Made by a program: the position numbers and the translations under genes
Notes under the pieces: generated by a model
The model's input: only the letters and a program-made list of their open reading frames with translations
Told to the model about the DNA's origin: nothing
The model's database searches: none
In this document: piece after piece, positions 13,951 through 30,256 of the stretch
How positions within the stretch are numbered: the first letter of the stretch is position 1
Layout: each line of letters opens with the position of its first letter
Source of the DNA: a virus
IMG/VR virus record: IMGVR_UViG_3300044786_000093
DNA: 30,256 nt
Strand: one strand, 5' to 3'

Positions 13951-13958
13951 ACCCACCC

Positions 13959-14102
13959 ATGGACAAGCCGCTGGCGCTCTTCTCGCTGCTGCTCGTCGCA
14001 CTTGCGGCGCTCGCCTACACGCTGCTTTTCCACGTCGCCCGCCGCTGGGCCGTCCCGCCTGACTTCTTCAATGCCCAGGTCCCGACCCACTCGCTCCAGT
14101 AA
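13959..14102 (+). CDS. Small membrane protein (47 aa; below the ORF-track cutoff).
   Basis: Hand translation: MDKPLALFSLLLVALAALAYTLLFHVARRWAVPPDFFNAQVPTHSLQ. The ATG lies 8 nt after the -10. Confidence 0.4.
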   Translation: MDKPLALFSLLLVALAALAYTLLFHVARRWAVPPDFFNAQVPTHSLQ

Positions 14103-14448
14103 GACCCGCAGCCGCGGCGCTCAACGCCGCAACTCCAACGCCAAGACCCACGGCTTTTACTCTTCACTCCCGCCCCGCAAACTCGACACCATTACCGACA
14201 TCCTACTCGACGCCCAGGCGCGCCAGGCGCAGCTCTCCACCTACATCGACGCCGTGCTGGCCGAGGGGGCCACAACCGACGACGTGGTCAAGCTCATTGG
14301 CCTCCACGCGCAGGGCGCCACTCGACTGGCCCGCCTGCTCCGCGACCAGCGCGCCCTCGGAGGCCAGGCCGCCGAGGGCCTGACCGCCGCCATCGCCGCC
14401 GCGCTCGACGAGCTGGGAACAGAGATCGGACTCCCCGAGCCGCCCTAA
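14071..14448 (+). CDS. Putative small terminase-like protein (125 aa).
   Basis: Located just upstream of TerL. The N-terminal basic motif RGAQRRNSNAKTHGFYS resembles the N..KHGxYS box I recall from small proteins upstream of terminases. The start is uncertain (TTG 14002 is an alternative). Confidence 0.45.
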   Translation: MPRSRPTRSSKTRSRGAQRRNSNAKTHGFYSSLPPRKLDTITDILLDAQARQAQLSTYIDAVLAEGATTDDVVKLIGLHAQGATRLARLLRDQRALGGQAAEGLTAAIAAALDELGTEIGLPEPP

Positions 14449-14467
14449 AGGGTCGCAAAGAACGCTG

Positions 14468-14716
14468 ATGAACAAAACCCGCCGCCCACCGCGCCAACTC
14501 GGAGCCGCGCTCCGCCGCTTCGCCCAAGCGCTCGTGCCCACCGTCGGCGCCGACCAGGAAGCGCCGCCGCCCGAAAACGACTGGCAGCGCGCGATAGAGC
14601 TGCGCATCTCCAAGCTGGAGCAGGCCACCAACGCACAGAACCGCCTGCTGCTGCTGACCCTGATCAGCATCCTCGCCGAGTTCCTTTATGGATTGCGAAC
14701 GTACATGACGCCATGA
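14468..14716 (+). CDS. Hypothetical protein (82 aa) with a C-terminal hydrophobic helix.
   Basis: ORF track. Weak RBS. Confidence 0.5.
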   Translation: MNKTRRPPRQLGAALRRFAQALVPTVGADQEAPPPENDWQRAIELRISKLEQATNAQNRLLLLTLISILAEFLYGLRTYMTP

Positions 14717-14722
14717 TCACTT

Positions 14723-16282: not shown

Positions 16283-17858
16283 AAGGATTCGGGTAGCCAC
16301 AAAGAGAGTCAAGGGGCGCGCCGCACGCTCCGATTTCGCCCACGCAAAATCGCAGGCCCCGCGATTCACCGCCGCGCAGATGAAAGCCGAAGTCGCCCGC
16401 CAGGTGCAGCTGAGCGTGTCGAAGCTCGCCGTGCGCGAGACCGACGACACCTTCATCCTCGGCGCGCGCCAGGCGTCTCAACAGAACTGGCGCGACCGCT
16501 ACGACTACGACCGCGAAAAGATTTTGCTCGACGCGCTGCTCGTGTGGCGCTCCAACCCGCTCGCGCGCCGCATCGTCGAGCTGACCAGCCAGTACGTCGT
16601 CGGCGGAGGCCTGGTCCCCATCTGCAAGCACCCCGAGACCGCCAAATTCCTGACGAAGTTTTGGGACCACAGACTCAATCGCATGGAGACGCGCTGTATC
16701 GAGTGGTGCGACGAACTGACCCGCTCCGGCGAACTCTTCATCTTGATCGCCACCGACCCCGGCGGCCAGTCCTACGCGCGCGCCGTCGCCGCCGCCGACA
16801 TCGAGGCGATCACCCCATCCGCCAACGACATCGAGCAGGCCGTTTCCTTCCAGCCCAAGCTCAGCGTCGACGCCCTGAGCCTGTCGAAGGGCGACCCCGC
16901 GCCTTACATCGCCTACGACGAGCAGAACGACGAGCCGGACAGCCAGGGCAAGTGGCAGCCGCGCATGGTCCAGTACGCCGTCAACCGCCCCGTGGGCGGG
17001 CAGCACGGCGAGAGCGACCTGGGGCCGCTGCTCCGCTGGCTCACGCGCTACGACGGCTGGCTCGAAGACAGAGTCCGGCTCAACCGCTACCGGCAAGCCT
17101 TCATGTATATCCTCACCGGCACGTGGGAAAACGAGACCGCGCGAAAGAAAAAGCAGGCCGAAATCAACGCCGACCCGCCCCCGCCCGGCTCGACTCTGGT
17201 GACAGACAAGTCCGAAACTTGGGGCGTGCTCAACCCGCAGCTCGCCAGCTTCGAAGCGGGCGAAGACGGTCTGGCGATCAAGAAACACATTGCCACCGGC
17301 GCCGGCATCCCACTTCACTTCGTCGCCGAACCGGAGGGCGAGACGCGCACGACCGCCGCCGCCTCGGGCAGCCCCACCTTCCGCCACTACGAGCAGCGCC
17401 AGCTCTACTTCCTATCGTTCGTCAAAGACATTCTCAACATCGTCCGCCGCCGCGGCATCGAAGCCAAACGGCGTCTCTCCACCACCGCCGACATCGTCAT
17501 GCGCGGCGGTGACATCTCCGGGCGCGACAATGCCGCGCTCGCGCTCGCCGCTTCGCAGATCGTCGCTTCGTTCGCCGTGATCCGCGACCGGGGGTTGATC
17601 GACGACGCGGAACTGCTGCGCCTGTCCTATCGTTTCGCAGGCGAGCTCGTAGATGTGGAGGAGATGCTGGAACGCGGCCGGCAAGCGCCAATGCCTCGCA
17701 TCCTGCCCAAGGCCGGAGCCGCCGCGCCGCCCGGAGGCAACAAGAAGAAGGTCAAGCCCACCGATCCGCTCGTGGACGCCGACGTCGAGAAGCCGCAGGG
17801 CGACGCCGCGCTCAGCGCCGTGCAACGCCGCAACGGTCAGCTGACGACTGACGACTGA
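16272..17858 (+). CDS. Portal protein (about 528 aa).
   Basis: Follows TerL. Size and the motif ...LLVWRSNPLARRIVELTSQYVVGGG... are portal-like. GAGGAG lies 7-9 nt before GTG 16272. ATG 16380 is an alternative start. Confidence 0.75.
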   Translation: MAAKRIRVATKRVKGRAARSDFAHAKSQAPRFTAAQMKAEVARQVQLSVSKLAVRETDDTFILGARQASQQNWRDRYDYDREKILLDALLVWRSNPLARRIVELTSQYVVGGGLVPICKHPETAKFLTKFWDHRLNRMETRCIEWCDELTRSGELFILIATDPGGQSYARAVAAADIEAITPSANDIEQAVSFQPKLSVDALSLSKGDPAPYIAYDEQNDEPDSQGKWQPRMVQYAVNRPVGGQHGESDLGPLLRWLTRYDGWLEDRVRLNRYRQAFMYILTGTWENETARKKKQAEINADPPPPGSTLVTDKSETWGVLNPQLASFEAGEDGLAIKKHIATGAGIPLHFVAEPEGETRTTAAASGSPTFRHYEQRQLYFLSFVKDILNIVRRRGIEAKRRLSTTADIVMRGGDISGRDNAALALAASQIVASFAVIRDRGLIDDAELLRLSYRFAGELVDVEEMLERGRQAPMPRILPKAGAAAPPGGNKKKVKPTDPLVDADVEKPQGDAALSAVQRRNGQLTTDD

Positions 17859-17874
17859 GGACTGAGGACTGACC
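17845..17874 (+). repeat. Heptads cgacTGA cgacTGA ggacTGA ggacTGA at the portal stop.
   Basis: The second TGA (17856-17858) is the portal stop. GAGGA lies 7 nt before ATG 17876. Confidence 0.85.
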
Positions 17875-17875
17875 A

Positions 17876-18235
17876 ATGACCGCTCCCCACGTCACCCGCT
17901 TCCGCAAGGCGCTCGCCGGTTCTTTCTTCCGCGTAGGCTACTACAGCGGCGGCGGCGCGGGCACCGTCGACCCGGAAAAGTTCTGCGTACAGTATCAGAA
18001 GAACCCCACCGCGCCCACGCAGCCCAGCGCGCCCACGCAGCCCAGCGCGCCGACCGGGGCCACACCCGCGACGCCGCCCGCGATGGCGGCCTGCGGCAGC
18101 GCGGCGGGCATACGCAACCCGCCCGTTCCACCAGGCGGCGCACCCAACCCGCCCGCTCCCACCCAGCCACCGCGACCGGCACCGGAGCCGCCACCCGAAG
18201 GGACACCGACACCGCCCACTGGAGGCACACCATGA
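17876..18235 (+). CDS. Pro-rich low-complexity protein (119 aa) with an APTQPS tandem repeat.
   Basis: Heptad-derived SD. ATGA overlap with the capsid gene. Confidence 0.55.
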   Translation: MTAPHVTRFRKALAGSFFRVGYYSGGGAGTVDPEKFCVQYQKNPTAPTQPSAPTQPSAPTGATPATPPAMAACGSAAGIRNPPVPPGGAPNPPAPTQPPRPAPEPPPEGTPTPPTGGTP

Positions 18236-20325
18236 CCGACATCGAACTGACTGACTTCGGACTGACTGAGCAGCACGCGCAATTCGCCGCCGCCGCCGAC
18301 GTCAACGCGCGCGGCGAGTTCGAGATCGTCGCCATCACCGCCGGGCAGGCCAACGGCTGGAACTTCACCGCCAAGGCGCTCCAAGAGTCGGTCAAACTCT
18401 GGGACGGCACCAACTCGCTCATCGACCACGCCGGCTTCTTCGACATGCCCAGCATCATGAAACTCGGCGGCGTGTGCTACGGCCCCGCGTGGGACGAGAG
18501 CCGCCAGGGCATCAAGGCCACGCTCCGCCCGTTCGGACCGTGCGGCCCGCTCGTCGCCGACCTGGGCAAGGAAGTCTTGGCCGCCAAAGCCAAAGGCGAC
18601 CCCATGCCCAAGATCGGCTTCTCCGCAGACATCTGGTTCAAGGCCAACGGCCGCGACGTGATCGAGATCACGCGCATCACCAGCCTTGACCTGGTGATCG
18701 ACCCCGCGCGCGGCGGGGACTTTCTCCGCGCTCTGAATCAGGCGGGCTACCCCCGCCGGGAGGCCACTATGGCAGACACTGCCACCCCCGCTCCCGCCCC
18801 GGCCACAGCGCCAGCCCCGGCGGCCAACACAGCCCAGACGCCTACACCCGTCGCGGCCCAACTCGAAGCCGACCTCGCCGCCATCCGCAACATGGCCCAG
18901 GTTGACGAGGAGCGCCGCGCACTGGCAAGCGAGGCCGCGAAGGCGCGCGAACTCCGCGCCGCCATGTGCGGACACCTGCTCGACACGGGCCTGGCCGCGT
19001 CGCGGCTGCCTACCCCCATGCAGGACAGCGTCCGCAAGCAGTTCAGCACCATCGGCGCCGATGGCAAGATCAAGCCGCGCGCCTTTGAGCCGACCGAGCT
19101 CACCGACGCGATCGACGCAGCGCGCGACCTGGTCAGCGCGCTCACTGGCCCGTCCGCGGTCATCGGACCCGGCCGGACGCACTCCATGTTCAACACGGAC
19201 GACAAAGTCCTGGCCGCCGTCGAGGACCTGATGGAGGTCCCGCGCGACGACGCGCTCAAAGCCGTCAAGACCGCCCAGCTCTCCGGTGTGCGCGAACTCT
19301 ACCTGATGTTCACGGGCGACCGCGACTTCAGGGGCGGCTACTACCCGGAGCACGTCCAACTGGGCACCGGCTCGTTCACCAGCATCGTGGCGAACGTGAT
19401 GAACAAAGCCGTCGTCACGCGCTGGGAACTGATGGGCCGCAAGGGCTACGACTGGTGGAACCAGGTCGCCCACGTCGAGAAATTCAAAGACCTGCAACAA
19501 GTGCGCTGGCTCATCACCGGCACCATCGCCACCCTGCCCACCGTCGCCAAGGGCGCAGAGTACACGCCGCTGATGATCGGCGTAGGCCACGAACTGAGTT
19601 CGTTCGCCAAGTACGGCGGCTACGTCGGGATCGACCTGGAAGACTTGATCAACGACGACACGCGCAAGCTGCGCGAGACCCCGCGCGAGCTCGCCTCCGC
19701 CGCGATCCGCAACATCAGCGAGCTGGTTGCCGCGCTCTTCACCATGAACAGCGCTGTTGGCCCGACGCTCGTCGACACCGGCGCACTGTTCAACAACACC
19801 GCCGTCGCCACCGCCGGTGGCCACCTGAACCTGCTCACGACCGCGCTCGGCACGACCTACGCGGCCTGGGACGCCGCCGCCACCGCCGTCTACAACCAGC
19901 CCATGCTGGTCAGCAACGACACTGGGTACATAGGCACGGGCAAGAAGCTTGGTCTCAACCCGTCCATCTGTCTGGTGCCGCGCGCACTCCAGCCCGCCGC
20001 CGAAGCGCTCTTCACGCCGAACTGGGCGGACAGGGTGGAGGCCATCGCCGCCTCCGGAGGCCCGACCTACGCCGGGCACGTCAAGCCCCTCGTCGTCCCG
20101 GAGTGGACCGACGCCACCGACTGGGCCGCCGTCTGCGACAAGGACCTCGTGCCCGGCGTCTGCATCGGCCACGTCTTCGGCCTGATGCCGGAAATCTTCG
20201 TGGCCGGCGACGAACTCTCGCCCGCCGTCTTCGCCAACGACGAGTTCCGCGTCAAGGTGCGCCACCACCTGGCCGTCGGCGTCGCCGACTTCCGCCCGCT
20301 GCACAAGAACAACGTCGCGGGCTAA
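18232..20325 (+). CDS. Putative fusion of a scaffold/protease-like N-domain with the major capsid protein (697 aa).
   Basis: Position after the portal. The N-terminal ~190 aa (GEFEIVAITAGQANGWNF...LIDH) resemble GPO-type scaffold/peptidase domains. A coiled-coil, Ala/Pro-rich linker follows, then a C-terminal ~400 aa capsid-sized domain. Strong hairpins flank the gene. Confidence 0.6.
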   Translation: MTDIELTDFGLTEQHAQFAAAADVNARGEFEIVAITAGQANGWNFTAKALQESVKLWDGTNSLIDHAGFFDMPSIMKLGGVCYGPAWDESRQGIKATLRPFGPCGPLVADLGKEVLAAKAKGDPMPKIGFSADIWFKANGRDVIEITRITSLDLVIDPARGGDFLRALNQAGYPRREATMADTATPAPAPATAPAPAANTAQTPTPVAAQLEADLAAIRNMAQVDEERRALASEAAKARELRAAMCGHLLDTGLAASRLPTPMQDSVRKQFSTIGADGKIKPRAFEPTELTDAIDAARDLVSALTGPSAVIGPGRTHSMFNTDDKVLAAVEDLMEVPRDDALKAVKTAQLSGVRELYLMFTGDRDFRGGYYPEHVQLGTGSFTSIVANVMNKAVVTRWELMGRKGYDWWNQVAHVEKFKDLQQVRWLITGTIATLPTVAKGAEYTPLMIGVGHELSSFAKYGGYVGIDLEDLINDDTRKLRETPRELASAAIRNISELVAALFTMNSAVGPTLVDTGALFNNTAVATAGGHLNLLTTALGTTYAAWDAAATAVYNQPMLVSNDTGYIGTGKKLGLNPSICLVPRALQPAAEALFTPNWADRVEAIAASGGPTYAGHVKPLVVPEWTDATDWAAVCDKDLVPGVCIGHVFGLMPEIFVAGDELSPAVFANDEFRVKVRHHLAVGVADFRPLHKNNVAG

Positions 20326-20343
20326 GCTCAATAACCCAAAAGA

Positions 20344-20385
20344 GGGGCCGGGCGGCGCGTACATCGGAGTCCACCGCCCGGCCCC
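20344..20385 (+). terminator. Terminator-like hairpin after the capsid gene (12-bp stem ggggccgggcgg/ccgcccggcccc).
   Basis: Read directly. No U-tract. Confidence 0.5.
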
Positions 20386-20438
20386 ACCGCCGCACCATCG
20401 AGTAGCCCGGCCCCATTGGGGCAGGAAAAGGAACACCC

Positions 20439-21119
20439 ATGAACGCCTACCTTCTCTCCACCCTCGCACTCGGCGCGCTCGTGCTCGGCGCACTGCTGAT
20501 CGCGCTCGTGCACGAAGCCCAACGCGGCACGCTCAACTTCTCAGCCCTCACGCGCTGGTTCAAGATCGCCAGCCGCTTCGGCGCAGAACTCGGCGGCTAC
20601 GTCCACAACACCAGCCTGAGCCAGTGGATCTCCCCCGGCATGTGCAGCTACGTGACCGGCACCTGGACGGACGCGGTCGGCGCGGTCACCGGAACCGTCG
20701 TCAAAGAGAAGACCGCCGCCGACAATACCGGCGTGGTCTACATCCCCATCAGCGCCGCTCTGATCGCAAGCAGCGTGGACCTGATGGGCTCGTATCTCAA
20801 GACCATCGACATCTGGTGGGCCACCACCACCGCCGCGCTCGACGCGGCCGGCGCGACGGCGCTCATCGACCTGTTTGTGCTGCCCGCCAACGGCGCGGCC
20901 TTCCCCGCGCTCGTAGCCCAGCCCTTCACCTACGACACCGGCAACGACACCGCCGGCGAGACCGACGATCTGGACGAGCACAAGATGACGCTCACGCTCA
21001 CCACCCCGATCTGGCTCGACGACGACGACCTGGTGCAGGTGCGCATGACCTTCGACGCCGCCGCCACCAGCGTTGTCCGCTTCCACGGCGCACGCGCGAA
21101 CTACACGCTGCGCCTGTAA
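20439..21119 (+). CDS. Hypothetical virion-associated protein (226 aa) with an N-terminal hydrophobic segment.
   Basis: AAAGGA lies 6 nt upstream. It sits between the capsid gene and the terminators. Confidence 0.65.
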   Translation: MNAYLLSTLALGALVLGALLIALVHEAQRGTLNFSALTRWFKIASRFGAELGGYVHNTSLSQWISPGMCSYVTGTWTDAVGAVTGTVVKEKTAADNTGVVYIPISAALIASSVDLMGSYLKTIDIWWATTTAALDAAGATALIDLFVLPANGAAFPALVAQPFTYDTGNDTAGETDDLDEHKMTLTLTTPIWLDDDDLVQVRMTFDAAATSVVRFHGARANYTLRL

Positions 21120-21129
21120 CTGGAAACAC

Positions 21130-21202
21130 GCGGCGACTAGCCACGCCGCTGGTTTCTCTCCTTCGCCCGGGGGCGGCGCGCTCCCAATCACGCGCCGCCC
21201 CC
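21130..21202 (+). terminator. Two hairpins. The first has a T-rich tail.
   Basis: gcggcg-actagcca-cgccgc followed by tggtttctctcc, then gggggcggcgcg-ctcccaatca-cgcgccgccccc. Confidence 0.55.
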
Positions 21203-21222
21203 CACTAGAAAGGACTCTCGCC

Positions 21223-21486
21223 ATGCCCCCCTTCTGGAAGACCATCGAATTTTGGACGGCTGTCCTGATGCCCGTGCTCGTCGTGCTCTGGCCGCTCGCC
21301 ATCGCCGCGCTCCCGTTCCTGTCCGTGCTCACCGCCGAGCAGGTGACGCTCGTCATCGCGGGCGGCATCGTCGCCATCATCGTGGCGCTCACCGGCCTCG
21401 CGCACTTCCGGCTCACGCGCGCCCGCACCCTTGCCATCCTGGCCGCCGCCAACATCGCCGCCGCGCACAGCGCCAAAGGCAAGTGA
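21223..21486 (+). CDS. Multi-pass small membrane protein (87 aa). Holin-like.
   Basis: AAAGGA lies 8 nt upstream. Two or three hydrophobic helices and a basic C-terminus. Confidence 0.55.
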   Translation: MPPFWKTIEFWTAVLMPVLVVLWPLAIAALPFLSVLTAEQVTLVIAGGIVAIIVALTGLAHFRLTRARTLAILAAANIAAAHSAKGK

Positions 21487-21489
21487 CGC

Positions 21490-21804
21490 ATGACCCGGAG
21501 ACCCGCCCCGCCCAACGCTCCACGCCCTACGCCCGCCGACCCGCTCACCGCCGCGCTCAAGATACTCGGCGTCAAGCCAAACAACGTGCAGGACAGCGCG
21601 ACCCGCGAGAACGGCGACTTCGTCGCCATCGTCAACCAGGGACAGAAGTTCGTCTTCACCCCCAAGGAGCTTGCCGACCCGAAGGTCGCCCGCGCCCGCC
21701 TGCGCGCCGAGGGCCGCACCGTCATCCCGCCGCTCGACCCAACGAAGAAGGCCAACGCCAGGCCCGACGACGGCCTGCCGGACGACGGACTGCCCGAGGA
21801 TTAG
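21490..21804 (+). CDS. Hypothetical protein (104 aa).
   Basis: ORF track. Tightly packed after the previous stop. Confidence 0.6.
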   Translation: MTRRPAPPNAPRPTPADPLTAALKILGVKPNNVQDSATRENGDFVAIVNQGQKFVFTPKELADPKVARARLRAEGRTVIPPLDPTKKANARPDDGLPDDGLPED

Positions 21805-21807
21805 CCC

Positions 21808-22029
21808 ATGTTCACCACCGACGAAGGCTCAAACACCAACTGGGCGATCCTGTTCAGCGAACGCGATCTGAAAGAGATTGCCTTCTGCAAGCTCTACGCC
21901 GATCAGTTCGCACACGGCACAGACGGTCACCTGATCCGCCTGATCGTCGCGCGCCTGGCTGCCCAACTCGACGTACAAGAGCAGATGTTGAAAGAACTGC
22001 GGGCCAAGTCTCAGAAGCCCACCGACTGA
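21808..22029 (+). CDS. Hypothetical protein (73 aa).
   Basis: GAGGA lies 7 nt upstream. Confidence 0.65.
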   Translation: MFTTDEGSNTNWAILFSERDLKEIAFCKLYADQFAHGTDGHLIRLIVARLAAQLDVQEQMLKELRAKSQKPTD

Positions 22030-22071
22030 GGACTTCGGACTGACGACTGACTCACTTCGGACTTCCCGACC
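22023..22071 (+). repeat. Seven in-phase heptads (cgacTGA ggacttc ggacTGA cgacTGA ctcactt cggactt cccgacc) that exactly fill the gap to ATG 22072.
   Basis: The first TGA is the real stop (22027-22029). Confidence 0.85.
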
Positions 22072-22746
22072 ATGCCTTTGACCCTCGCCCAACTCGAAGC
22101 CCGCGTCGCGCTCCGCTTGAAGGACCCGGCGAACGCCATCTACTCCACCGCCGACCTCGACGACGCGCTCCGGCTCGCGCTCCACGACTACAGCCGCGCC
22201 TCGCCGCTCACCGCCGAAACGCTGCTCACGCTCCCCGGCGTCGGGCGCACCATCGCGCTCAACAATGTCACCGACCTGCTCAACGTCTCCGAAGTCTGGT
22301 GGCCCTACGACTCAACGCTGGACGACGACACCAACGAGGCCGCCAACCAGGTGAGAGGCTTCTTCCTGCGCTTCGACGACGCGCAGCCCATCGTCACGGT
22401 CAGCACCATCGGCAACGCCAGCCCGCAGACCGACGACGAAGCGTATCTCTGGTACACCAAGCCGCACACGATCCAGAACCTGGACGCGGCCTCGACGACC
22501 ACGCTCCACGCCCATCACGAGACCATGCTGGCCGTCGGCGCAGCCGGCTACGCCGCCACCAGCGAGGCGCTGGACCAGGTCGGCAGCGTCCACATCGACC
22601 CGAAGGAAGTGGACTACCTGAAAACATGGGGCGAGGCGCAGCTGCGCGTGTGGCGCGACTTCCTTGAAACCGTGCGCGCCGCCAGCGCGCGAGGCGGCAA
22701 GCCCTGGGCGGCCAAGGGCTGGAAGCTGGACGCGGACGATAAGTGA
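22072..22746 (+). CDS. Putative head-tail connector/adaptor protein (224 aa).
   Basis: Position. The N-terminus MPLTLAQLEARVALRLKDP...ADLDDAL is typical of gp6-like adaptor N-termini, as I recall them. Confidence 0.5.
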   Translation: MPLTLAQLEARVALRLKDPANAIYSTADLDDALRLALHDYSRASPLTAETLLTLPGVGRTIALNNVTDLLNVSEVWWPYDSTLDDDTNEAANQVRGFFLRFDDAQPIVTVSTIGNASPQTDDEAYLWYTKPHTIQNLDAASTTTLHAHHETMLAVGAAGYAATSEALDQVGSVHIDPKEVDYLKTWGEAQLRVWRDFLETVRAASARGGKPWAAKGWKLDADDK

Positions 22747-22749
22747 CCC

Positions 22750-23046
22750 ATGCACCCTTGTCTTCGCCCCATCGCCGAGCGCGACCCACGCGACATCTTC
22801 GCCGCGCTCGCCGACGGCGCCACCGCGCTCCGCTGGCTGGCGCGTGAGGTCGCCTACGACGCCAATCGCTTCGTCAACCAGGGCGACCGCGACCGCGTCG
22901 CCGTGAACGCCCACGCTCGCTACGAGCGCCAGCGCGCCCACGCCCTCCTGCTCGACATCCTTGCCGACGAACTCGCACTCGTGCAAGCGCAAGCGCGGCT
23001 CAACGCGGCGGCCCATTCGTTGACACCCGACGAGGAACACACGTGA
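22750..23046 (+). CDS. Hypothetical protein (98 aa).
   Basis: ORF track. Tight packing. Confidence 0.6.
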   Translation: MHPCLRPIAERDPRDIFAALADGATALRWLAREVAYDANRFVNQGDRDRVAVNAHARYERQRAHALLLDILADELALVQAQARLNAAAHSLTPDEEHT

Positions 23047-23447
23047 GCGCGCCAACCGGATACCCCTTCTACCTGCACGGGCGCGCCAGAAGCGCCGAGC
23101 ACTTCGCCGAACTCTGCACCGCGCTCCGCACCTTCGACTTCGAGATCGTCGCCGCTTACATCGCCGCCGGAGTCGAAGCCGTCCCACCCGTCGTCGCCGT
23201 CCCACCGCCCCCTGAGCCTGCTGAGCCTGTCGAAGCACATCACAACTTCGCGCCGCGCATCAACCAGAAGGTGATCGACATCTTCCGCGCCGTCTTCGGC
23301 GGGGACTTCTGGGCCATCGTCACCCGCGCCGGGCTGGCCTACATGGCCGCATCACCCGCCGCGCGCCAGGCCGCCTACATCGGCCCCGACGTCGAAGACC
23401 TGCCACTCACACCCGACGAGCGCGCCCGACTGATTGCGGCGCTATGA
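23043..23447 (+). CDS. Hypothetical protein (134 aa).
   Basis: GTG start, with GAGGAA 5 nt upstream. Overlaps both neighbouring genes. Confidence 0.6.
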   Translation: MSAPTGYPFYLHGRARSAEHFAELCTALRTFDFEIVAAYIAAGVEAVPPVVAVPPPPEPAEPVEAHHNFAPRINQKVIDIFRAVFGGDFWAIVTRAGLAYMAASPAARQAAYIGPDVEDLPLTPDERARLIAAL

Positions 23448-25378
23448 AAACGATCAACGCGACGCTCGCCACCGCCCAGAAGACCGGCGCAGGCCAGGCC
23501 CTCGCCCGCGCCACGCTGGCAGACAACAACCACCTTCATTTAAGTCAGCAGCACACGCCCACCGACGGCGGACACGTCTGCGGCGTGAACACGGGCAGCG
23601 CCATCGTCCGCATCCGCCGCGCCGCGACCGGCAACATCCAATCCCAGATCATCACCGACCCGACCGCGCTCGCCGAGTGGAACGCCTGGACGGACATCAC
23701 CGGCGCAACCCCCGCCGTCCCCGACAAGGGCACGCTCTTCTACACCGGCACTTACCTGGTCGCCGTGTGGCAGGACTCGACCGACGCCGACATCAAGTAC
23801 AGCCGCTCGAGCGACGGAGGCTCGACCTGGTCGGCCCCCGCCGTCGCCTATGCACTCGCCGTCGCCGCCTTCTTCTGCGGCGTCTCGGGCGGCGCGGCCC
23901 AAAGCGGCCTCTTCCTGTCCTATGGCGGCCAACTCTATTGGGGCGCGTACAACCCCGCGACCAACACGTGGTCAGCCGTAGACTCCGCTGCGCTCGCCAC
24001 CACTTCCATTACATCCATCGCAGCCGCCTGGGACGCGGACAACAGCCGCCACATCCTGGCTTTCGCCGCCGCCGGGCTGGCAACGGGCCTGAGTTTTCCA
24101 GTGATCTTGATCACCCGCTCGAGCGCGGGCGCGTGGGGCACGCCTCACATCCAGTACGCCATCTCCAGCCTCAACCAGGTCTACACCGGCCTGGCGCTTT
24201 CACAGGAGCAGATCGGAGGCTACTGGTGGCTCTCGGTTCTGCGCCTCGGCGACTGGACCGACAGCGAATACGGCCTGGCGTGCTCCGACGACGGGCTGGA
24301 GTGGGAGGACATCAACTTCCAGGCCGCGACCGACGACTCTGGATTGCTCCAGGTGCTCGGCACGCTCGCCGGTTCCGTGTGGGTCGCCAGCCGTGCAAAG
24401 GTCTGGAAGAACGTCGCGCAATCCTTCTGGTCCAACCGCACGCTCCGCAGCTACGAGATGGACCTGTCCGGCGACATGGGCCGTCTCACCGGCGAGCTGG
24501 TCAACCAGGACGGCGCGATCACCGCCGCGCCGCCTGAGCGTTGGGCCGTGCTCACACTCGAGCGCGGGCTGAACGTCGCAGGCACGGACTACTACGTCAG
24601 CGCGGGCGTCTTCTATCTCACCGGCTTCCACTTCACCCTACAGGACAACGTCGTCGCATTCAGCGCCGTGGACGCGGTGGGTCTTCTGACCCGCTGGGAG
24701 GCCGATCAAGCCTACACGTGGGTGGGCGAATCGCTCACACAACTCGTGCGCTTCGTCTGCGCATTGGCGGGCGTCCACATCGTCACGTTCGACGCCGCCC
24801 CACAGTGGGCCGACACGCTCCCCCTCGTCATCCACCCCGGCAGCAGCGGCCTGGCCGCGCTCGACTCGCTCGCCGCGCGCGGCAACTTCGACGTCGTCGT
24901 GCAGCAGGACGGTTCACTCTATTGCTTCGTCGCCACCACCGCCCCCGCCGCGCAACACACCTACGGCGACGGCGCAAACCAGCACCGCTACTGGCCGGGC
25001 GCGTTCGGCGAGGGGCTGGCCCCCAACTACGTGGCCGTTTACCCGGACGACGAGGCCAACAGCGACGCGACCATGGACACCGCCGACATGGCCGACCTCG
25101 GCCACCGCCAGGTAGACGCCTTCATCGACCGACGGCTGCTCGCCGGGGCCGACGTGGCCGAGCTATCCGCCGCCCGACTCCTGCTCGCCCAGGAGCAGCG
25201 CCGCACCGGCTTCTTCGACTCACCCGTCAACTTCGCGCTCGAACCCGCCGACGTGCTGGAGTTCGACGCCCACTACGAGTCCGGCCTCAACTGGCGCGCC
25301 ACCGGCTTCACCGAGCGCTACGGCATGAACAAGCAGCGCCCCTACTTCCAGCACGTGCTCTTGCGAGGCACCGCGTGA
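23444..25378 (+). CDS. Tail/baseplate structural protein (644 aa) with a BNR/Asp-box motif.
   Basis: ATGA overlap. SRSSDGGSTWS matches the SxDxGxTW Asp-box. Large structural size. Confidence 0.65.
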   Translation: MKTINATLATAQKTGAGQALARATLADNNHLHLSQQHTPTDGGHVCGVNTGSAIVRIRRAATGNIQSQIITDPTALAEWNAWTDITGATPAVPDKGTLFYTGTYLVAVWQDSTDADIKYSRSSDGGSTWSAPAVAYALAVAAFFCGVSGGAAQSGLFLSYGGQLYWGAYNPATNTWSAVDSAALATTSITSIAAAWDADNSRHILAFAAAGLATGLSFPVILITRSSAGAWGTPHIQYAISSLNQVYTGLALSQEQIGGYWWLSVLRLGDWTDSEYGLACSDDGLEWEDINFQAATDDSGLLQVLGTLAGSVWVASRAKVWKNVAQSFWSNRTLRSYEMDLSGDMGRLTGELVNQDGAITAAPPERWAVLTLERGLNVAGTDYYVSAGVFYLTGFHFTLQDNVVAFSAVDAVGLLTRWEADQAYTWVGESLTQLVRFVCALAGVHIVTFDAAPQWADTLPLVIHPGSSGLAALDSLAARGNFDVVVQQDGSLYCFVATTAPAAQHTYGDGANQHRYWPGAFGEGLAPNYVAVYPDDEANSDATMDTADMADLGHRQVDAFIDRRLLAGADVAELSAARLLLAQEQRRTGFFDSPVNFALEPADVLEFDAHYESGLNWRATGFTERYGMNKQRPYFQHVLLRGTA

Positions 25379-25381
25379 CCG

Positions 25382-25421
25382 TGGACTTCGGACTGATGAC
25401 TAACCGACTTCGGACTGACCC
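25382..25421 (+). repeat. Heptad repeats (tggactt cggactg atgacta accgact tcggact gaccc).
   Basis: Read directly. They fill the gap to ATG 25422. Confidence 0.75.
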
Positions 25422-25838
25422 ATGATCAACCCGCACTCGCTCCCCGGCTCCGTCGGCCCCTTCATCGTGCGCAAGGCCGTGATCACCCCGCGTATGCGCC
25501 GGGGCCGCATCATCTCGTTCGACTCGCTCACCTGGAAGGCCGACGTGCAGCTGGACGGCGCGCTCGCCGCACTCACGATCAAGGTCGGCGACTGGGTCAA
25601 CCCCACGTCGCTCGTCGTGGGCGCAGCCGTCGCGGTCACGCTCTTCAACGACAGCAACCCCGACGACGGCCTGGTCGCGGGCGTGTACGACGCCTTGGGC
25701 GGGTGGGACTATTTCGTGCGCGCGCAACTCGACGCGGGCGAATACCTGACCATCCCCGCCCAGCACCAAATGAGAGTCAAGAGCGCGTACACCGTCAACG
25801 GCACGCTCACCATCAACGGCGCATTGATCGTGGACTAA
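25422..25838 (+). CDS. Small tail protein (138 aa), possibly an OB-fold spike/needle-like protein.
   Basis: Position between large tail proteins. GRIISFDSLTWKADVQLDG resembles gpV-type OB-fold starts; this is a weak call. Confidence 0.5.
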   Translation: MINPHSLPGSVGPFIVRKAVITPRMRRGRIISFDSLTWKADVQLDGALAALTIKVGDWVNPTSLVVGAAVAVTLFNDSNPDDGLVAGVYDALGGWDYFVRAQLDAGEYLTIPAQHQMRVKSAYTVNGTLTINGALIVD

Positions 25839-25869
25839 TTTGAACTTTGAAGTTTGCAGTTTGAAGTTT
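25839..25869 (+). repeat. AT-rich heptad repeats (tttgaac tttgaag tttgcag tttgaag tttc).
   Basis: They start immediately after TAA 25836-25838, with a 7-nt register. Confidence 0.8.
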
Positions 25870-25885
25870 CTTCATCTCACATGCC

Positions 25886-28048
25886 ATGACTACTAAACAA
25901 ACGGACACCCACTTCGAAGCCGACGAGCAAGCCAGCGTCGCCACGCCTGACGCAAACAAGGTCCGCCTGTACGCCAAGACCGACGGCCGCTACTACTCCA
26001 AAGACGACGCCGGGGCGGAGGCCGGGCCGTTCGGCGCAGCCGCAGGCGGCAGCCAGCACGTCATCCGCGAGAACGGCACGGGCCTGACCGCCCGCACCGG
26101 TCTCAACTTCGTCGCCGGGCTGATCGCCACCGACGACGCGGGCGGCGACGAGAGCGAAGTCGCGCTCGACTACGCCACAACCGAGATCGTCGACGTGGCC
26201 GCCGCCGAGGGCGCAGGCACGAGCGACAAAGTCCCGCGCGCCGACCACGCGCACGCGGTCCCCAACGACCTCATCACCAACGCCATGCTCGCCAACGTGG
26301 GCACCCAGACGTTCAAGGGCCGCACCACCGCCGCGACCGGCGATTCCGAAGACCTGACCGCCACGCAGGCGACAGCCATTCTCAACGCCATGGTCGGCGA
26401 CGCAGGCGCGGGCGGCACGAAAGGACTCGTCCCAGCGCCCGCCGCCGGCGACACGGCCGCCGGGAAGTATCTCAAGGCCGACGGCGCGTGGACCGTCCCG
26501 CCCGGCGGCGGCAGCAATCACAACCTGCTCGACGGATCAGTCCACCCCGACACGCTTGCCGACACGGTCACCGACGGCGACATCATCATAGGCAACGTCA
26601 CGCCCAAATGGTCGTCGCTCGCAATCTCCGTACCCGCCGCCAACGTGCTCAACGTCCTGAGCGTCGCCTTCGGCGAACTGCGCGCCTCGTGGAAGGCGCT
26701 CTTCGACGCCACCAACCCCGCCGCGCTCGGCACCGCCGCGCCCGGCACGTCGCTCATCGCCGCCCACCGCGACCACGTCCACCTCGACCCCGTCACCGCG
26801 CACGAGGCAGCCAGCGATCCGCACACCGGCTACGTCCGCGAGGCAGACCCGAACTGGACTGACCTGACCGACAGCGGGGCGACGACGCTCCACAGCCACG
26901 CGGGCGGTTCCGCACTCACCGTCCAGGAAGAAGACGGCACGCCCATTGACACCGCCGTCTCGGTCATCCGCGTGCCCAACGGCGGGCTGATTGACAACGG
27001 CGTCGGCGACGTCTCGCTCGGCTACGAGCTTGCCGGTCTCAACGCCACACACCTGGCCGACGCCGCCGACGCGCACGACGCCAGCGCAATCTCCATCCTC
27101 GACACCGCCGCCGACTTCACCGCGACCGACGTCGAAGGCGCACTCGCCGAACTGCAAGCCGACGCCGAAGCCCACGCCGCCGCCGCCGACCCCCACACCG
27201 CCTACGCGCTCGACACCGATCTCTCGACGCACGCCAGCGCCGCCGATCCGCACACCGGCTACGTGCTGGAGTCCTTGATCGACGCGGCCGGCGATCTCAT
27301 CCAGGGGTCCGCCGCCGACACCGTCGCGCGACTGGCGATCAGCGTTCCCGCCGCCAACATTTTGAACGTCCTGGGCGTCGCCTTCGGCGAGACCGTCACC
27401 TCGTGGAAAGCGATCCACGACGCCACCAATCCCGCCGCGCTCGGCACAGCCGCGCCCGGCACATCACTCCTGGCATCGCACCGCGACCACGTCCATCTTG
27501 ATCCGGTGACAGCGCACGTGGCCGCCGGGGACCCCCACACCGGCTACCGCCTGGAGTCGGCTGACCACTCGCACGCTTCGGCGGGCGCGCAGGGCGGCAC
27601 GATCCTGCTCTCCGACACCACAGTCTCGGGCCTGACCGACGGGCAGGTGCTCAAAGCCACCGGCGCGACGACCAAAGCCTTCGAAGACGACGTCGCCGCG
27701 ATCGAGTTCATCATCGACGGCGGCGGAAGCGCGATCACCACCGGGCAGAAGGGCCATCTCGAAATCCCCTTCGCCTGCGTCATCACGCGCGTGACCACAC
27801 TCGCCGACCAGACCGGCTCCATCGTCGTGGACATCTGGAAAGACACCTACGCCAACTTCCCGCCCACCGTCACCGACACCATCACCGCCAGCGCCAAGCC
27901 CACACTCGCCAGCGCGCAGAAGGCGCAGGACTCCACCCTCACCGGCTGGACGACCGCCATCGCGGCGGGCGATATCCTGGCCTACAACGTGGACAGCGCC
28001 ACGACCGTGACGCGCGTCGTCATCTCGCTCAAGGTGCGCAAGACGTGA
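25886..28048 (+). CDS. Tail fibre protein (720 aa) with an internal 71-aa duplication and repeated DH.H / DPHTGY motifs.
   Basis: RADHAHAV, HRDHVHLDPVTAH..DPHTGY (x2), AADPHTAY, AADPHTGY. These motifs are typical of phage tail-fibre repeats. Confidence 0.75.
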   Translation: MTTKQTDTHFEADEQASVATPDANKVRLYAKTDGRYYSKDDAGAEAGPFGAAAGGSQHVIRENGTGLTARTGLNFVAGLIATDDAGGDESEVALDYATTEIVDVAAAEGAGTSDKVPRADHAHAVPNDLITNAMLANVGTQTFKGRTTAATGDSEDLTATQATAILNAMVGDAGAGGTKGLVPAPAAGDTAAGKYLKADGAWTVPPGGGSNHNLLDGSVHPDTLADTVTDGDIIIGNVTPKWSSLAISVPAANVLNVLSVAFGELRASWKALFDATNPAALGTAAPGTSLIAAHRDHVHLDPVTAHEAASDPHTGYVREADPNWTDLTDSGATTLHSHAGGSALTVQEEDGTPIDTAVSVIRVPNGGLIDNGVGDVSLGYELAGLNATHLADAADAHDASAISILDTAADFTATDVEGALAELQADAEAHAAAADPHTAYALDTDLSTHASAADPHTGYVLESLIDAAGDLIQGSAADTVARLAISVPAANILNVLGVAFGETVTSWKAIHDATNPAALGTAAPGTSLLASHRDHVHLDPVTAHVAAGDPHTGYRLESADHSHASAGAQGGTILLSDTTVSGLTDGQVLKATGATTKAFEDDVAAIEFIIDGGGSAITTGQKGHLEIPFACVITRVTTLADQTGSIVVDIWKDTYANFPPTVTDTITASAKPTLASAQKAQDSTLTGWTTAIAAGDILAYNVDSATTVTRVVISLKVRKT
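26621..26833 (+). repeat. Tail-fibre internal duplication, copy 1 (213 nt).
   Basis: ISVPAANVLNVLSVAFGE...HRDHVHLDPVTAHEAASDPHTGY. The partner copy is at 27335-27547. Confidence 0.85.
27335..27547 (+). repeat. Tail-fibre internal duplication, copy 2 (213 nt).
   Basis: ISVPAANILNVLGVAFGE...HRDHVHLDPVTAHVAAGDPHTGY. Differences from copy 1 involve all four bases. Confidence 0.85.
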
Positions 28049-29370
28049 TCGGCTACTTCGCCGCCCCCTACACCCGCGACCTGAGCAAGTCGCGCCCCAC
28101 ACGCTACTGCGCCATGCAGGACGCGCAGAGCGTGATCGCGCTCGACGGCGGCGACTGGCACGAGACCGAAATTCTCCATACGGCCATACCCGCCGCAGGC
28201 GACACAGCTGGCAAGGCCATCGTGCGAGTGCGCGCATCCGTGGCCACACTCGCCGACCTGGCGACGGTGTATCGCCGCCTGCCGAAGAATAGCCTCGACG
28301 ATCCGCTGGCCGATCTGTCCACGGCGGTCAAGCGTGTGCTGCGCGACGAACTGGAGGACAGCGGGTACACCCTGACAGAAATCCAGGCACGCTTCGGCAA
28401 TGATATCGGCGCATATACCCTGCGCGACGTGGTGTCCTTTGCGGCCAGCCGCCGCCGCAAGCCGCGCTACGACGCCGCCAACGACAGAATCATTTGTGAC
28501 GGCGCGATCCAGTCCTGTCGCAACATCCAGGATGTGGAACGCTGGTGCTCCGATGACGCTGACTGGCAGCGGCTACTCGCGCTGCGCGATACGCTGCTCG
28601 CAGAGTGGGACGCCAACCAGAAACTCATCCGCCTGTCCCAGCGCTTGCCGGGCCTGCCGCAGTGGGAGCGCAGTACGCTGCTCGCGCTCGTCGGGCAGGC
28701 CGGATATTTCTTCGACAAAATCAGGCCAGATACGTTCCCGACGACGGGCCTACTCGACGATGCCAATCGTGCCGATGATGCCACGCCCCCACCCGGCGCG
28801 GGCTGGGGAGGAATGCTGTATTCGGCGGGCGGACAATTTCAGGTTTTGACCAATCAATTCGCGCCTCTGGGTGGAGGCGCAAGCACGGATTATTGGGGGA
28901 CACTCTTCGGCACTGATCAAGAGGCGTTTGTAGACATAGCAACAAAAAGCACCGTGAATGGGTCAGCCACGTTCGTTGATCTTCGGGTGGTTGCTCCCGG
29001 AACGTCAGCCTGGGATGGATATGAAATTGAAACTATTGTCGTCGCGGGAGCGGACGAATGCCGCATCTATCGCGTGGACAATGAAGCCTGGACACAACTC
29101 GGTGCTATGGTCAATCAGGAATTCGCATCGGGTGAAAGTCTGGGCGGAGAAGCCATTGGCAGTGCCCTGACTCTGTATCGCAAAAGCGCTGGCAGTTGGG
29201 CCAGCGTGCTGTCGCGCACGGATGCTACCTACGCACCCGCCAGCAGTTATATCGGCATGGGCTCCTACGAAGCCAGCACAACAGAATTCCGGCTTGACAA
29301 CTTCAGCGGCGGGACGGTGGTCGCCGCGGGCGGCGGCTTCGCCCACAGCCAGGGCGTCATCGTCGGCTGA
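28045..29370 (+). CDS. Putative receptor-binding/tail protein (441 aa) with a lectin/LamG-like C-terminal domain.
   Basis: GTGA overlap with the tail fibre. The C-terminal ~170 aa (FVDLRVVAPGTSAWDGYEIETIV...LYRKSAGSW...RLDNFSGG) look like a beta-sandwich. GC content is visibly lower in 28840-29130. Confidence 0.6.
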   Translation: MIGYFAAPYTRDLSKSRPTRYCAMQDAQSVIALDGGDWHETEILHTAIPAAGDTAGKAIVRVRASVATLADLATVYRRLPKNSLDDPLADLSTAVKRVLRDELEDSGYTLTEIQARFGNDIGAYTLRDVVSFAASRRRKPRYDAANDRIICDGAIQSCRNIQDVERWCSDDADWQRLLALRDTLLAEWDANQKLIRLSQRLPGLPQWERSTLLALVGQAGYFFDKIRPDTFPTTGLLDDANRADDATPPPGAGWGGMLYSAGGQFQVLTNQFAPLGGGASTDYWGTLFGTDQEAFVDIATKSTVNGSATFVDLRVVAPGTSAWDGYEIETIVVAGADECRIYRVDNEAWTQLGAMVNQEFASGESLGGEAIGSALTLYRKSAGSWASVLSRTDATYAPASSYIGMGSYEASTTEFRLDNFSGGTVVAAGGGFAHSQGVIVG

Positions 29371-29557
29371 CGGCGACATTCCAAGCAAGTGCTACGCCGC
29401 CGTCTGGCGACGGCGCACGGCCCGGCGTAGCGGCCTGGGCCGAGGCGGTAGCGGGATACCGCGACCGCCGTCAAACAAGTGCAGGGGCGACGCCGCTCCG
29501 CTTGTAAGTGCTGCGTCGCTCGTCGCCCCGTCAAGCCAACCCAGTGCAAAAAGAACC

Positions 29558-29650
29558 CCGGGCGACGGGGGTGAGCTGGCGCGGAAAGAACAAGTGCCCG
29601 CGCCGAACCCCTGGTCGCCCGGACGAGCAAAGGCTGAGGAGGCAAAACCC
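29558..29650. repeat. Structured ~90-nt module, copy 1 (nested helices plus an AAAGGCTGAGGAG tail).
   Basis: cgggcgacggggg-tgagct-[ggcgcgg-aaagaacaagtgc-ccgcgcc]-gaa-cccctggtcgcccg ... aaaggctgaggaggcaaaaccc. Confidence 0.6.
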
Positions 29651-29977
29651 ACACGCGGGGACGCGGGCAAGTGCGCCGCCCGGCCTTGAGAAAGTGCGCC
29701 GGGCCGCTGCCCGCTCGCGGCGTGGTTTCCGGCTGCAGGCGGCTGCTTCGACGCTTGCCCGGCGGCGCACTTCGCAAGAACCAAAACCGCTCTGCCGCCG
29801 CCGGTCTGCGCGCTCGCCCCACCCTTGCCGTCACCACCCCGCGCCCCGCAAGAGCCAAACCCCGGAGGCGGCGTGCGAAGCGCACCCCGCCGTCAGACAA
29901 GAGCCAAAGGCGACGCTTCGCCTGTAAGAACTGCGAAGCGTCGCCGTCAACCAAGATCAAAAGCAAAACCTAATGCT

Positions 29978-30068
29978 CAGGCGACGGGGGTAAGCTGGCG
30001 CGGAAAGAGCAAGAGCCCGCGCCGAACCCCCGTCGCCTTCGCACGGAAAAGGCTGAGGAGACAAAAGC
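29978..30068. repeat. Structured ~90-nt module, copy 2.
   Basis: ggcgacggggg-taagct-[ggcgcgg-aaagagcaagagc-ccgcgcc]-gaa-cccccgtcgcc ... aaaaggctgaggagacaaaagc. About 80% identical to copy 1 by eye. Confidence 0.6.
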
Positions 30069-30093
30069 AAAAGCCCCCACTCATCGCAGGGGC
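30057..30093 (-). terminator. Intrinsic terminator for the leftward operon.
   Basis: The minus strand reads gcccc-tgcgatgagtg-ggggc followed by ttttgcttttgtctcc. It lies about 35 nt downstream of the TAG at the junction. Confidence 0.5.
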
Positions 30094-30127
30094 ATTCGTT
30101 CCTCGGAAAAACTGCCGGGCCGAGCGC

Positions 30128-30256
30128 CTACCCCCGACTGCCCCCGACCTGATCGGGGGGGGGGCCAGCGCCTACCGCCCCCACGCGCACCCGCGCCAGC
30201 TTGTGCCCTTCAACGATCACGCTTCCCAGCGTGCCCATGTCGGGCTGCTCATGCAG
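30128..30256 (-). CDS. 3' portion of the same zinc-ribbon gene annotated at 1-274, seen again because of the end overlap. It includes the complete TAG stop (30130-30128).
   Basis: 30130-30256 duplicates 1-127. Reading the minus strand across 30130/30129/30128 gives TAG. Confidence 0.6.
   Translation of the reverse strand: MHEQPDMGTLGSVIVEGHKLARVRVGAVGAGPPPDQVGGSRG
30130..30256. repeat. Terminal direct repeat, the partner of 1-127.
   Basis: Exact identity, read base by base. Confidence 0.95.

Follow-up and report, generated by a model that had tools for sequence, protein, structure and literature searches.

Between two converging operons of a temperate phage, known from IMG/VR record IMGVR_UViG_3300044786_000093, lies a 700-nucleotide (nt) block of DNA crowded with hairpins. 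The stretch analysed, hereafter the window, is 30,256 nt long. Because its ends repeat exactly over 127 bp (positions 1-127 are identical to 30130-30256), the genome is circular, or terminally redundant, with a length of 30,129 bp; a leftward gene that seems to run off the right end of the window resumes at position 1. The rightward late operon spans ~13960 to 29370 and stops at a TGA codon (29368-29370). Facing it, a leftward operon of the immunity type extends from a near-consensus promoter (TTGACA-16-TATGAT, ~1431-1458) to position 30128, its first gene encoding a helix-turn-helix protein and its last one a 102-aa zinc-ribbon protein; the intrinsic terminator of this operon, T1, occupies 30073-30093 on the minus strand. 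The block that we name the hairpin forest fills positions 29371 to 30070, from the late stop codon to the A-tract ahead of T1, and is described here on the plus strand. An earlier reading made from the sequence alone (the sequence-only reading) had singled it out as non-coding and packed with stems. The forest is real, and all the stems and repeats listed at that time are present.

Anatomy of the hairpin forest

A census of perfect stems of at least 7 bp with loops of 3-40 nt, made over the whole genome in 700-nt segments, places the genome maximum at the segment that begins at 29301, with 17 stems (139 bp) as compared to a genome median of 4 (28 bp). Among them are the previously noticed 13-bp stem (29909-29921/29933-29945) and 9-bp stem (29759-29767/29796-29804), together with recurring GACGGCG/CGCCGTC and GGCGACG/CGTCGCC helices; the A-rich linkers CAAGAGCCAAA and CAAAAGCAAAA come twice each, as already described, and AAGTGC is indeed found six times, with AAGAGC found four times. 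The share of the genome had been overestimated: the forest makes up 2.3% of it, and a figure of about 7% is reached only when the 1.5-kb non-coding leader at 1500-3000 is added.

Two independent gene callers, run on three assemblies, predict no gene in the forest. The open reading frames (ORFs) that overlap it have a flat GC content across codon positions (GC3 0.65-0.75, GC2 0.61-0.73), whereas the real genes of the phage show GC3 values of 0.84-0.93 and GC2 values of 0.44-0.56; the GC content of the forest itself stays between 0.59 and 0.74 throughout. ARAGORN detects no tRNA there, and no CRISPR direct repeat matches it at a relaxed Rfam threshold (E ≤ 10). A scan of Rfam and the folding of both strands had been proposed by the sequence-only reading. 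The former matched no family, even at E ≤ 10: in Rfam 15, CRISPR repeats, CrcZ/Rsm sponges and riboswitches included, nothing in the window reaches the gathering score, and 29200-30256 gives chance-level scores only (E ≥ 2, at most 19 bits). The latter confirms that the region is stable, with a minimum free energy of the 740-nt region at z = -3.65 on the plus strand and -8.45 on the minus strand against dinucleotide shuffles, but the modules prefer no strand. Taken individually they reach z = -4.2 to -7.3 on either strand, and this equal stability means that folding cannot decide which strand matters; G-U pairs number 22 on the minus strand and 11 on the plus strand. The predicted structure is a chain of independent local hairpins. 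The large structured non-coding RNA once proposed is thus unsupported as stated, since Rfam gives no match, the local hairpins fold on both strands and, as described below, the nearest relative is devoid of the region.

What does distinguish the strands is the sequence of loops and linkers. CAAGWGC occurs seven times on the plus strand of the forest, where ~0.1 is expected, and never on the minus strand (shuffles predict 8.2 over the whole 30 kb, both strands included). More generally, a loop or linker sequence of the form AAG-W-G/A-C recurs from hairpin to hairpin, always on the plus strand, while the stems vary. Runs of (ARN)3 or longer follow the same rule, with five on the plus strand of the 700 nt and none on the minus strand, for a genome average of 1.3 per kb.

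At the entrance of the forest, three mutually complementary 7-mers, GACGGCG / CGCCGTC / GACGGCG (29369-29415, plus strand), permit two alternative hairpins, 29369-29375 with 29398-29404 or 29398-29404 with 29409-29415, and the loop of one of them contains CAAGTGC. Beyond this point a unit of ~215 nt, comprising three hairpins, is present in duplicate: Unit A at 29440-29650 and Unit B at 29862-30070, both on the plus strand. The common order is hairpin Ha, linker GTCARACAAGWGC, hairpin Hb, an A-rich linker, hairpin Hc and the 13-mer AAAGGCTGAGGAG, which resembles a Shine-Dalgarno sequence, though without a start codon after it. Ha consists of GGCGG...CCGCC around a small hairpin; Hb of GGCGACG...CGTCGCC with the loop YTGTAAGWRCT; in Hc, an outer helix of 11 bp gives way, through a 6/3 internal loop, to an inner helix of 7 bp capped by the 13-nt loop AAAGARCAAGWGC. 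In Unit A, Ha-A (29444-29469) is followed by the linker GTCAAACAAGTGC, Hb-A (29484-29529) carries the loop TTGTAAGTGCT, Hc-A pairs 29558-29571 with 29608-29622 around an inner hairpin at 29578-29604 (loop AAAGAACAAGTGC), and the end segment is AAAGGCTGAGGAGGCAAAA (29629-29647). In Unit B, Ha-B (29867-29891) precedes the linker GTCAGACAAGAGCCAAAG, Hb-B (29909-29945) is built on the 13-bp stem, with the loop CTGTAAGAACT and then the linker GTCAACCAAGATCAAAAGCAAAACC, Hc-B pairs 29979-29991 with 30026-30038 around 29997-30023 (loop AAAGAGCAAGAGC), and AAAGGCTGAGGAGACAAAA (30048-30066) ends the unit. The sequence-only reading had seen two nested modules of ~90 nt. Both are there and match each other at a distance of 419 nt (51 nt at 94% identity, 19 nt at 95%), but the duplication extends to the full three-hairpin unit. 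Its divergence is uneven: Hc and the 13-mer are 94-95% identical between the two units, while Ha and Hb are only ~60% identical, and the three substitutions that separate the copies of Hc all fall at unpaired positions.

The centre of the forest (29651-29861, plus strand) is unique. It comprises a hairpin at 29678-29704 with the loop CTTGAGAAAGTGC, two 16-nt segments that are complementary at long range (29669-29684 and 29757-29772), the 9-bp hairpin (29759-29804), which has CAAGAACCAAAACC within its loop, and a C-rich, G-poor tract at ~29801-29860.

At the far end, T1 consists of GCCCCUGCGAUGAGUGGGGGC followed by UUUUGCUUUUG. It folds at -18.1 kcal/mol (z -4.5) on the minus strand and at -9.5 kcal/mol (z -1.9) on the plus strand, G-U pairs making it specific to the minus strand, where it fits the definition of an intrinsic terminator: a GC-rich hairpin with a U-tract. 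The region 28800-30256 holds five terminator-like sites, T1 included, all of them on the minus strand (2.2 ± 1.6 in shuffles). Within the forest there are four weak sites on the minus strand and none on the plus strand, and the U-tails of the forest hairpins on the minus strand (UUUGGCUCUUG and similar) are interrupted. With no plus-strand terminator after the last late gene, the forest would be carried as a ~700-nt 3' tail of the late mRNA. A stack of leftward terminators was considered as the sole explanation of the forest and rejected: adequate U-tracts are present in only two to three units, and relatives bear the loop motif on the sense strand.

Relatives and the A-rich-loop hairpin

Six samples contain the phage, and the forest is 100% identical in all the copies. 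Relatives were sought by way of the flanking proteins (720, 441 and 102 aa). This uncovered a lineage 92% identical, present as one 939-nt contig that stops at T1, the remaining matches being in unrelated genomic contexts. As a consequence of copies that are identical and of a contig that is so short, covariation of the R-scape type is impossible to assess over the whole forest. The nearest longer relative, IMGVR_UViG_3300031576_000981, shares ~75% nucleotide identity in structural genes. At its syntenic junction there is only a bidirectional terminator, which aligns to T1 (contig L001, 13190-13230). The forest is absent from that site and the last late protein of the relative is unrelated to that of the present phage, so that the forest is an insertion or an expansion specific to its lineage, within a mosaic zone.

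The same relative harbours a different hairpin array, in which a 123-nt unit is repeated in tandem at least 2.6 times, at 97% identity (L084 1-330 / L312 1-170). This array lies 3' of the early-operon terminator, ~100 nt upstream of the late promoter, and since it spans both ends of the contig, the contig is a complete circle broken within the repeat. It holds a nested module of its own (outer helix of 10 bp, internal loop of 6 nt, inner helix of 7 bp, loop AAGTGAG), in which a C-G pair of one copy is replaced by a compensatory T-A pair in another, a third copy being the half-changed intermediate. Hairpin arrays sitting at operon boundaries in both phages are thus a recurrent and fast-evolving trait of this phage group.

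Beyond these relatives, blastn of the forest found nothing similar among 50,697 phages and 72,556 plasmids, and the 27-mer of Hc has no match in IMG/VR. A 16-mer loop pattern has at least 118 matches, with no stem longer than 4 bp among the matches listed. A metagenome scan with an anchor conserved between the two lineages, in a collection devoid of samples carrying this phage, returned seven unrelated contigs. Among the loci compared, IMGVR_UViG_3300029799_000859 displays a 'stem' thousands of bases long, an apparent giant inverted repeat that is most likely an assembly artefact.

One module of the forest is found elsewhere. It consists of an A-rich loop of 12-13 nt, AAA[AG]NNCAAGWGC, on a GC stem, and it is often nested in an outer helix. 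This hairpin recurs, with stems that differ yet still pair, in the forest, in the early leader of the phage, in two distant relatives (L147 and L143) and in a Chloroflexi repeat. The leader copies, already noticed near 1600 and 1950 in the sequence-only reading, are at 1606-1632 (CCGCGCGG-AAAACCAAGAG-CCGCGCGG) and 1946-1972 (GGACGGGGG-AAGACCAAGTG-CCCCCCGCC), both on the plus strand. Hairpins with an AAG[AT]G loop are, as a general class, at background level across all the loci compared (291, versus 259 for a control motif, in 3.1 Mb). The loop scan nevertheless singled out L147, a relative with ~49% capsid identity, in which CGGCGC-ATAAACCAAGAGC-GCGCCG is nested in GGTGGGG...CCCCACC. The site is a non-coding gap of ~550 nt, extending from the late-operon terminator to the next promoter, and the same gap holds GATCACAAGCAAAACC, to be compared with GATCAAAAGCAAAACC at 29955 of the window. 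A covariance model built from eight A-rich-loop hairpins recovers its training set at 34-43 bits (35.9 and 34.0 bits for the hairpins at 1606 and 1946) and finds, outside this set, L143 at 20 bits (E = 0.1), where TGCGGC-AAAACCAAAAGC-GCCGCA is again nested and placed in the equivalent gap. Another 1.2 Mb of phage loci yielded no further match below E = 0.4, and the nearest relative has no hairpin that matches the model.

In the alignment of these hairpins 83.9% of the cells are paired, as against 63% after shuffling, and all seven pairs changed on both sides, a count that is inflated because the sequences were picked as hairpins. Wherever a phage carries it (forest, 1606, 1946, L147, L143), the A-rich loop reads in the same sense as the flanking genes, in keeping with an RNA element or with a hairpin bound by a protein. 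The idea of structured single-strand modules thus gains support from varied stems, kept pairing and sense orientation, for the A-rich-loop hairpin and for that module only.

A scan of a genome collection with the 21-nt core of Hc retrieved only three contigs (L184-L186), from metagenome-assembled genomes (MAGs) of Anaerolineae (Chloroflexi), which belong to one palindromic repeat family of ~100 nt, with the full form ATGTCRYTGCGAGG ... CCTCGCARCGACAT. The repeat contains GGCGG-AAAGAGCAAG[A/T]GC-CCGCC and, in its other arm, GGC-AAAACCAAGAGC-GCC. The 12-13-nt sequences concerned are identical to those of the Hc loops and of the loop at 1606, down to the A/T alternative. In the repeat, by contrast, structure prediction pairs the A-rich segment with the facing arm of the ~100-nt hairpin, and the MAG loci have a GC content of 45-49%, compared to 67% for the phage. 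The family is defined by its termini, ATGTCRYTGCGAG / CTCGCARYGACAT, and by its GAAGCAATCTC arms; the window is devoid of the termini and only an inner segment of 21-23 nt is common to both, so that we do not count the forest as a member. The three matches, being one repeat family, may reflect a single chance event, and the resemblance would be a lead for the host or the origin of the sequence rather than a sign of membership.

A palindromic element, ATGTCATTGCGAG ... GAAGCAATCTC, was observed in numerous unrelated contigs of phages, frequently just past a stop codon, as well as in Anaerolineae MAGs (L003, L007, L008, L011, L014, L016, L017, L020, L100, L124 and L128; L184-L186). In L124 it is part of tandem repeats of 238 nt. 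Rfam has no family that it matches, and literature searches for this repeat brought up no relevant paper in which the sequence is printed.

What the forest may do

We tentatively favour the view that the forest is a hairpin cluster akin to the repetitive extragenic palindromic (REP) sequences and bacterial interspersed mosaic elements (BIMEs) of chromosomes, built by duplication and forming the 3' tail of the late mRNA, where it would act as a protector of the 3' end and as a buffer between converging operons. Its position, its purely local structure, its rapid turnover and its duplication are what lead us to this view. Late transcription would read on into the forest, and some ten GC-rich hairpins (-20 to -45 kcal/mol) in the resulting ~700-nt tail would block 3'-to-5' exonucleases. 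The forest would also provide a non-coding run-off zone for late transcription before it collides with leftward transcription. The leftward operon would be halted by T1, while the weaker units behind it, made of a hairpin and a U-rich tail, might catch read-through before it becomes antisense to the tail genes. The whole may have been assembled by local duplication of the A-rich-loop module typical of the family (GC stem, AAA[AG]NNCAAGWGC).

REPs are described as occurring for the most part 3' of ORFs, in gaps between genes that converge or run in the same direction, and as probable RNA elements; the tag that marks them is an unpaired GTAG or CGTC at one end, and in the CGTC families the stem is of 8-9 bp and starts with A-T pairs, and the loop is of 4-5 nt (PMC3733652). 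The likeness is one of layout and presumed action. In both cases GC-rich palindromic hairpins are clustered in non-coding DNA, directly downstream of ORFs (typically between convergent genes for REP/BIME, from the late stop codon to the terminator of the converging operon for the forest), as repeated units with short conserved linkers; each is presumed to be transcribed and to serve, within the RNA, as a 3'-end or termination element. In its working the forest would be most like REP/BIME clusters, yet it falls outside the described GTAG/CGTC families: it has no consistent tag and no GTAG/CGTC architecture, its stems are of 7-13 bp and all G-C, and its loops are of 11-13 nt. It is, besides, phage-borne rather than chromosomal, and its units keep one orientation (CAAGWGC seven to none) instead of forming head-to-head dimers. 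Nor did the searches reveal a high-copy family elsewhere: blastn of phages and plasmids found none and the genome scan found the three Chloroflexi repeats only.

Several of these observations weigh against the REP/BIME-like view. The features that define described REPs (tag, 8-9-bp stems with A-T pairs, 4-5-nt loops, alternating orientation) are lacking, and no matching repeat family was found by blastn in the plasmids and phages searched. Seven hundred bases are far beyond what the protection of a 3' end needs. A plain barrier does not need either a loop and linker motif that is conserved, strand-specific and common to distant relatives. Finally, the preservation of Hc and of the 13-mer AAAGGCTGAGGAG at 94-95% within units that have otherwise diverged hints at a specific constraint, or at gene conversion.

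It is this length, this strand-specific conserved loop and this uneven divergence of the units that would be accounted for if the forest were a multivalent RNA array, in which A-rich-loop hairpins and linkers serve, in the sense transcript, as sites for one RNA-binding protein. The sites might be of the boxB/nut antiterminator kind, of the RNase III processing kind, or decoys for an Hfq-like (ARN)n binder, the whole acting as a multi-copy platform or sponge produced late in infection. We regard this as possible but doubtful. It agrees with a loop that is kept while the stems vary yet pair, in four copies in the window, in L147, in L143 and in the Chloroflexi repeats, with pairing and paired changes above the shuffled level, with a covariance model that, over 2 Mb of DNA from other phages, finds only these hairpins at E < 0.1, with the constant sense orientation, with the (ARN)3 runs confined to the plus strand and with copy differences of Hc restricted to unpaired positions. 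The covariation count is, however, biased upward by the choice of sequences already known to form hairpins, the (ARN)n excess partly reflects an A-rich composition, the nearest relative has no hairpin that fits the model, and the Chloroflexi segment is predicted to be paired rather than looped. As for the comparison with lambda-type nut sites, each presents, on the sense transcript, an A-rich loop closed by a GC stem, and the hairpins at 1606 and 1946 have a nut-like position, between the promoter region (~1430-1500) and strong terminators (2057-2140), with the boxA-like sequence TGCTCTTTC found twice nearby (2166, 2198). But the loops are of 12-13 nt instead of 5 nt, the boxA-like sites are downstream of the first terminators, copies at the end of a late operon are not where a nut site is expected, and no RNA-binding or N-like protein is recognised among the proteins of the phage, which are orphans. 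The T7-type RNase III hairpins and lambda sib provide the other parallel. Like Hc (11 bp, 6/3, 7 bp), they measure ~60 nt, with two stems, lower and upper, separated by an asymmetric internal loop, and they follow coding regions, a place in which cleavage would either set off decay or leave behind a hairpin protecting the 3' end. They share no sequence similarity with Hc, and its large conserved terminal loop is foreign to RNase III sites.

At the opposite end stands the idea that the forest is functionless for the phage, neutral or selfish DNA born from slippage and duplication, or from inserted palindromes similar to REPs or to miniature inverted-repeat transposable elements, in a recombination-prone spacer. 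The nearest relative has nothing of the forest at the syntenic site, and the zone is so mosaic that the neighbouring gene is itself unrelated; both points would suit this idea, as would duplication, the recent expansion implied by the 97%-identical tandem array of that relative, the palindromes inserted right after stop codons at other phage loci and the match of the Hc core to a Chloroflexi palindromic repeat. Against this, the divergence of the two units is very uneven, Hc and the 13-mer being at 94-95% and the rest at ~60%, and the loop motif, always sense, is also present in the non-coding control regions of distant relatives; phage genomes, furthermore, are usually pressed to stay compact. 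We deem this explanation rather unlikely. A role at the DNA level is still much less probable, be it as iterons of an origin, a pac or cos site, a partition site or single-stranded hairpin priming signals. Iterons had been evoked by the sequence-only reading, a proposal that finds no support here. Short sequences such as GGCGACG and CGCCGTC do recur; the array of the relative is just upstream of a late operon that begins with packaging genes, its compensatory C-G to T-A change would equally keep a DNA palindrome, and a strand asymmetry that is uniform, whatever the direction of the genes, suggests one-directional replication. Conservation in the forest resides in loops and linkers and not in stems, however, which is the opposite of what double-stranded binding sites show. 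Its direct repeats are few and irregularly spaced where iteron origins and partition sites have regular ones of ~17-22 bp, there is no AT-rich unwinding stretch, no Rep, Par or primase gene is near, the terminase genes are 14 kb away, the integrase and a likely attP are elsewhere (7124-8044), and the location of the hairpins differs among relatives.

A bolder proposal, which we find improbable though worth stating, is that the A-rich-loop hairpin is an undescribed RNA recognition element of an uncultured family of temperate phages, echoed in Chloroflexi repeats, and that the forest is a late-expressed 700-nt platform or decoy (for an antiterminator or an Hfq-like protein, for example) that would couple the end of late transcription to the control of the immunity operon.

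Other candidates were rejected. The integrase at 7124-8044 speaks against the forest as attP, and a CRISPR or Racr mimic has no direct-repeat match to rely on. Repeat-RNA systems with a partner gene (type III toxin-antitoxin, TIGR-Tas, RNA anti-CRISPR, retron non-coding RNA) do not fit, as spacing is irregular and no partner gene is near, which excludes both a type III antitoxin array and a TIGR array; the neighbours of the forest have no significant PADLOC, Pfam or NCBIfam match to toxin, Tas, Cas, reverse transcriptase or defence genes. The letters of the Hc internal loop do not fit a K-turn or a loop-E motif, and GGA, as estimated from base composition, is not enriched as it would be in a CsrA/Rsm sponge.

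Should the REP/BIME-like view be correct, clusters usually deemed chromosomal would also arise, and turn over fast, at the operon boundaries of small temperate phages, which would be of relevance for the annotation of phage non-coding DNA and for understanding why assemblies break there. Should the forest be a protein-binding RNA array, the A-rich-loop hairpin would add a new motif to phage regulatory RNA, one whose binding partner could be tested, and the Chloroflexi resemblance would be a first clue to the host of a phage group without cultured member. The conserved hairpin is the part of the forest worth following up.

The early leader and other features of the genome

Downstream of the divergent promoter region, a hairpin-rich leader of ~550 nt precedes the early genes (window 1480-2300). 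In addition to the two A-rich-loop hairpins, it has an 11-bp hairpin at 1765-1798 on the plus strand (z -5.3), with the loop ATTGAGAAGAGC, of the type seen at 29678-29704. Two strong rightward intrinsic terminators (~2057-2100 and 2113-2140) close the leader, the boxA-like copies of TGCTCTTTC come 3' of them, and the first real early gene follows at 3020. Such a layout suggests antitermination control. Complementarity of the forest loops to GTGCTCTTTC at 2166 and 2198 extends over 9 nt, which is the chance level for regions of this size, and was discarded.

From 2116 to 2960 the plus strand is nearly free of adenine. Its core, 2319-2724, is a run of 406 nt with no A, followed by a single A, which makes a TGA codon, and by 122 nt more without A; the AT skew is -1.0 across 2401-2700. 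Absence of A on one strand leaves all six frames open by default, and the 133-aa and 85-aa ORFs called in this stretch are devoid of the coding GC3 signature. A shorter A-poor equivalent exists in the nearest relative (L001, 20100-20780), while L143 and L147 have none. Literature searches on adenine-free phage regions brought nothing relevant. This stretch is probably more unusual than the forest and, lying beside the other cluster of hairpins, it makes the non-coding architecture around the immunity operon unusual as a whole.

The rest of the genome is that of a phage with no close cultured relative, the capsid protein being less than 32% identical to that of any cultured phage. It encodes an excisionase-like protein, a terminase, a portal and a capsid-protease fusion, and its Xer-like tyrosine integrase is read from the minus strand amid the rightward early region. 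Its small proteins include a helix-turn-helix protein of 98 aa, zinc-ribbon proteins of 102 and 122 aa and a first early protein of 140 aa. A second-tier hairpin-dense zone adjoins the integrase (7600-8300) and may be attP. Nearly everywhere, the plus strand has more C than G (GC skew about -0.1 to -0.3) and more A than T. This skew persists across the leftward operon, where genes are on the opposite strand, and the asymmetry is thus independent of the direction of transcription. Immediately ahead of the first late ORF, in the region 13800-13960, stands a candidate late promoter, TTGACG-17-TACTAT, preceded by an AT-rich palindrome, AAATCGTTAG...CTAACGATTT, that has the look of an operator.

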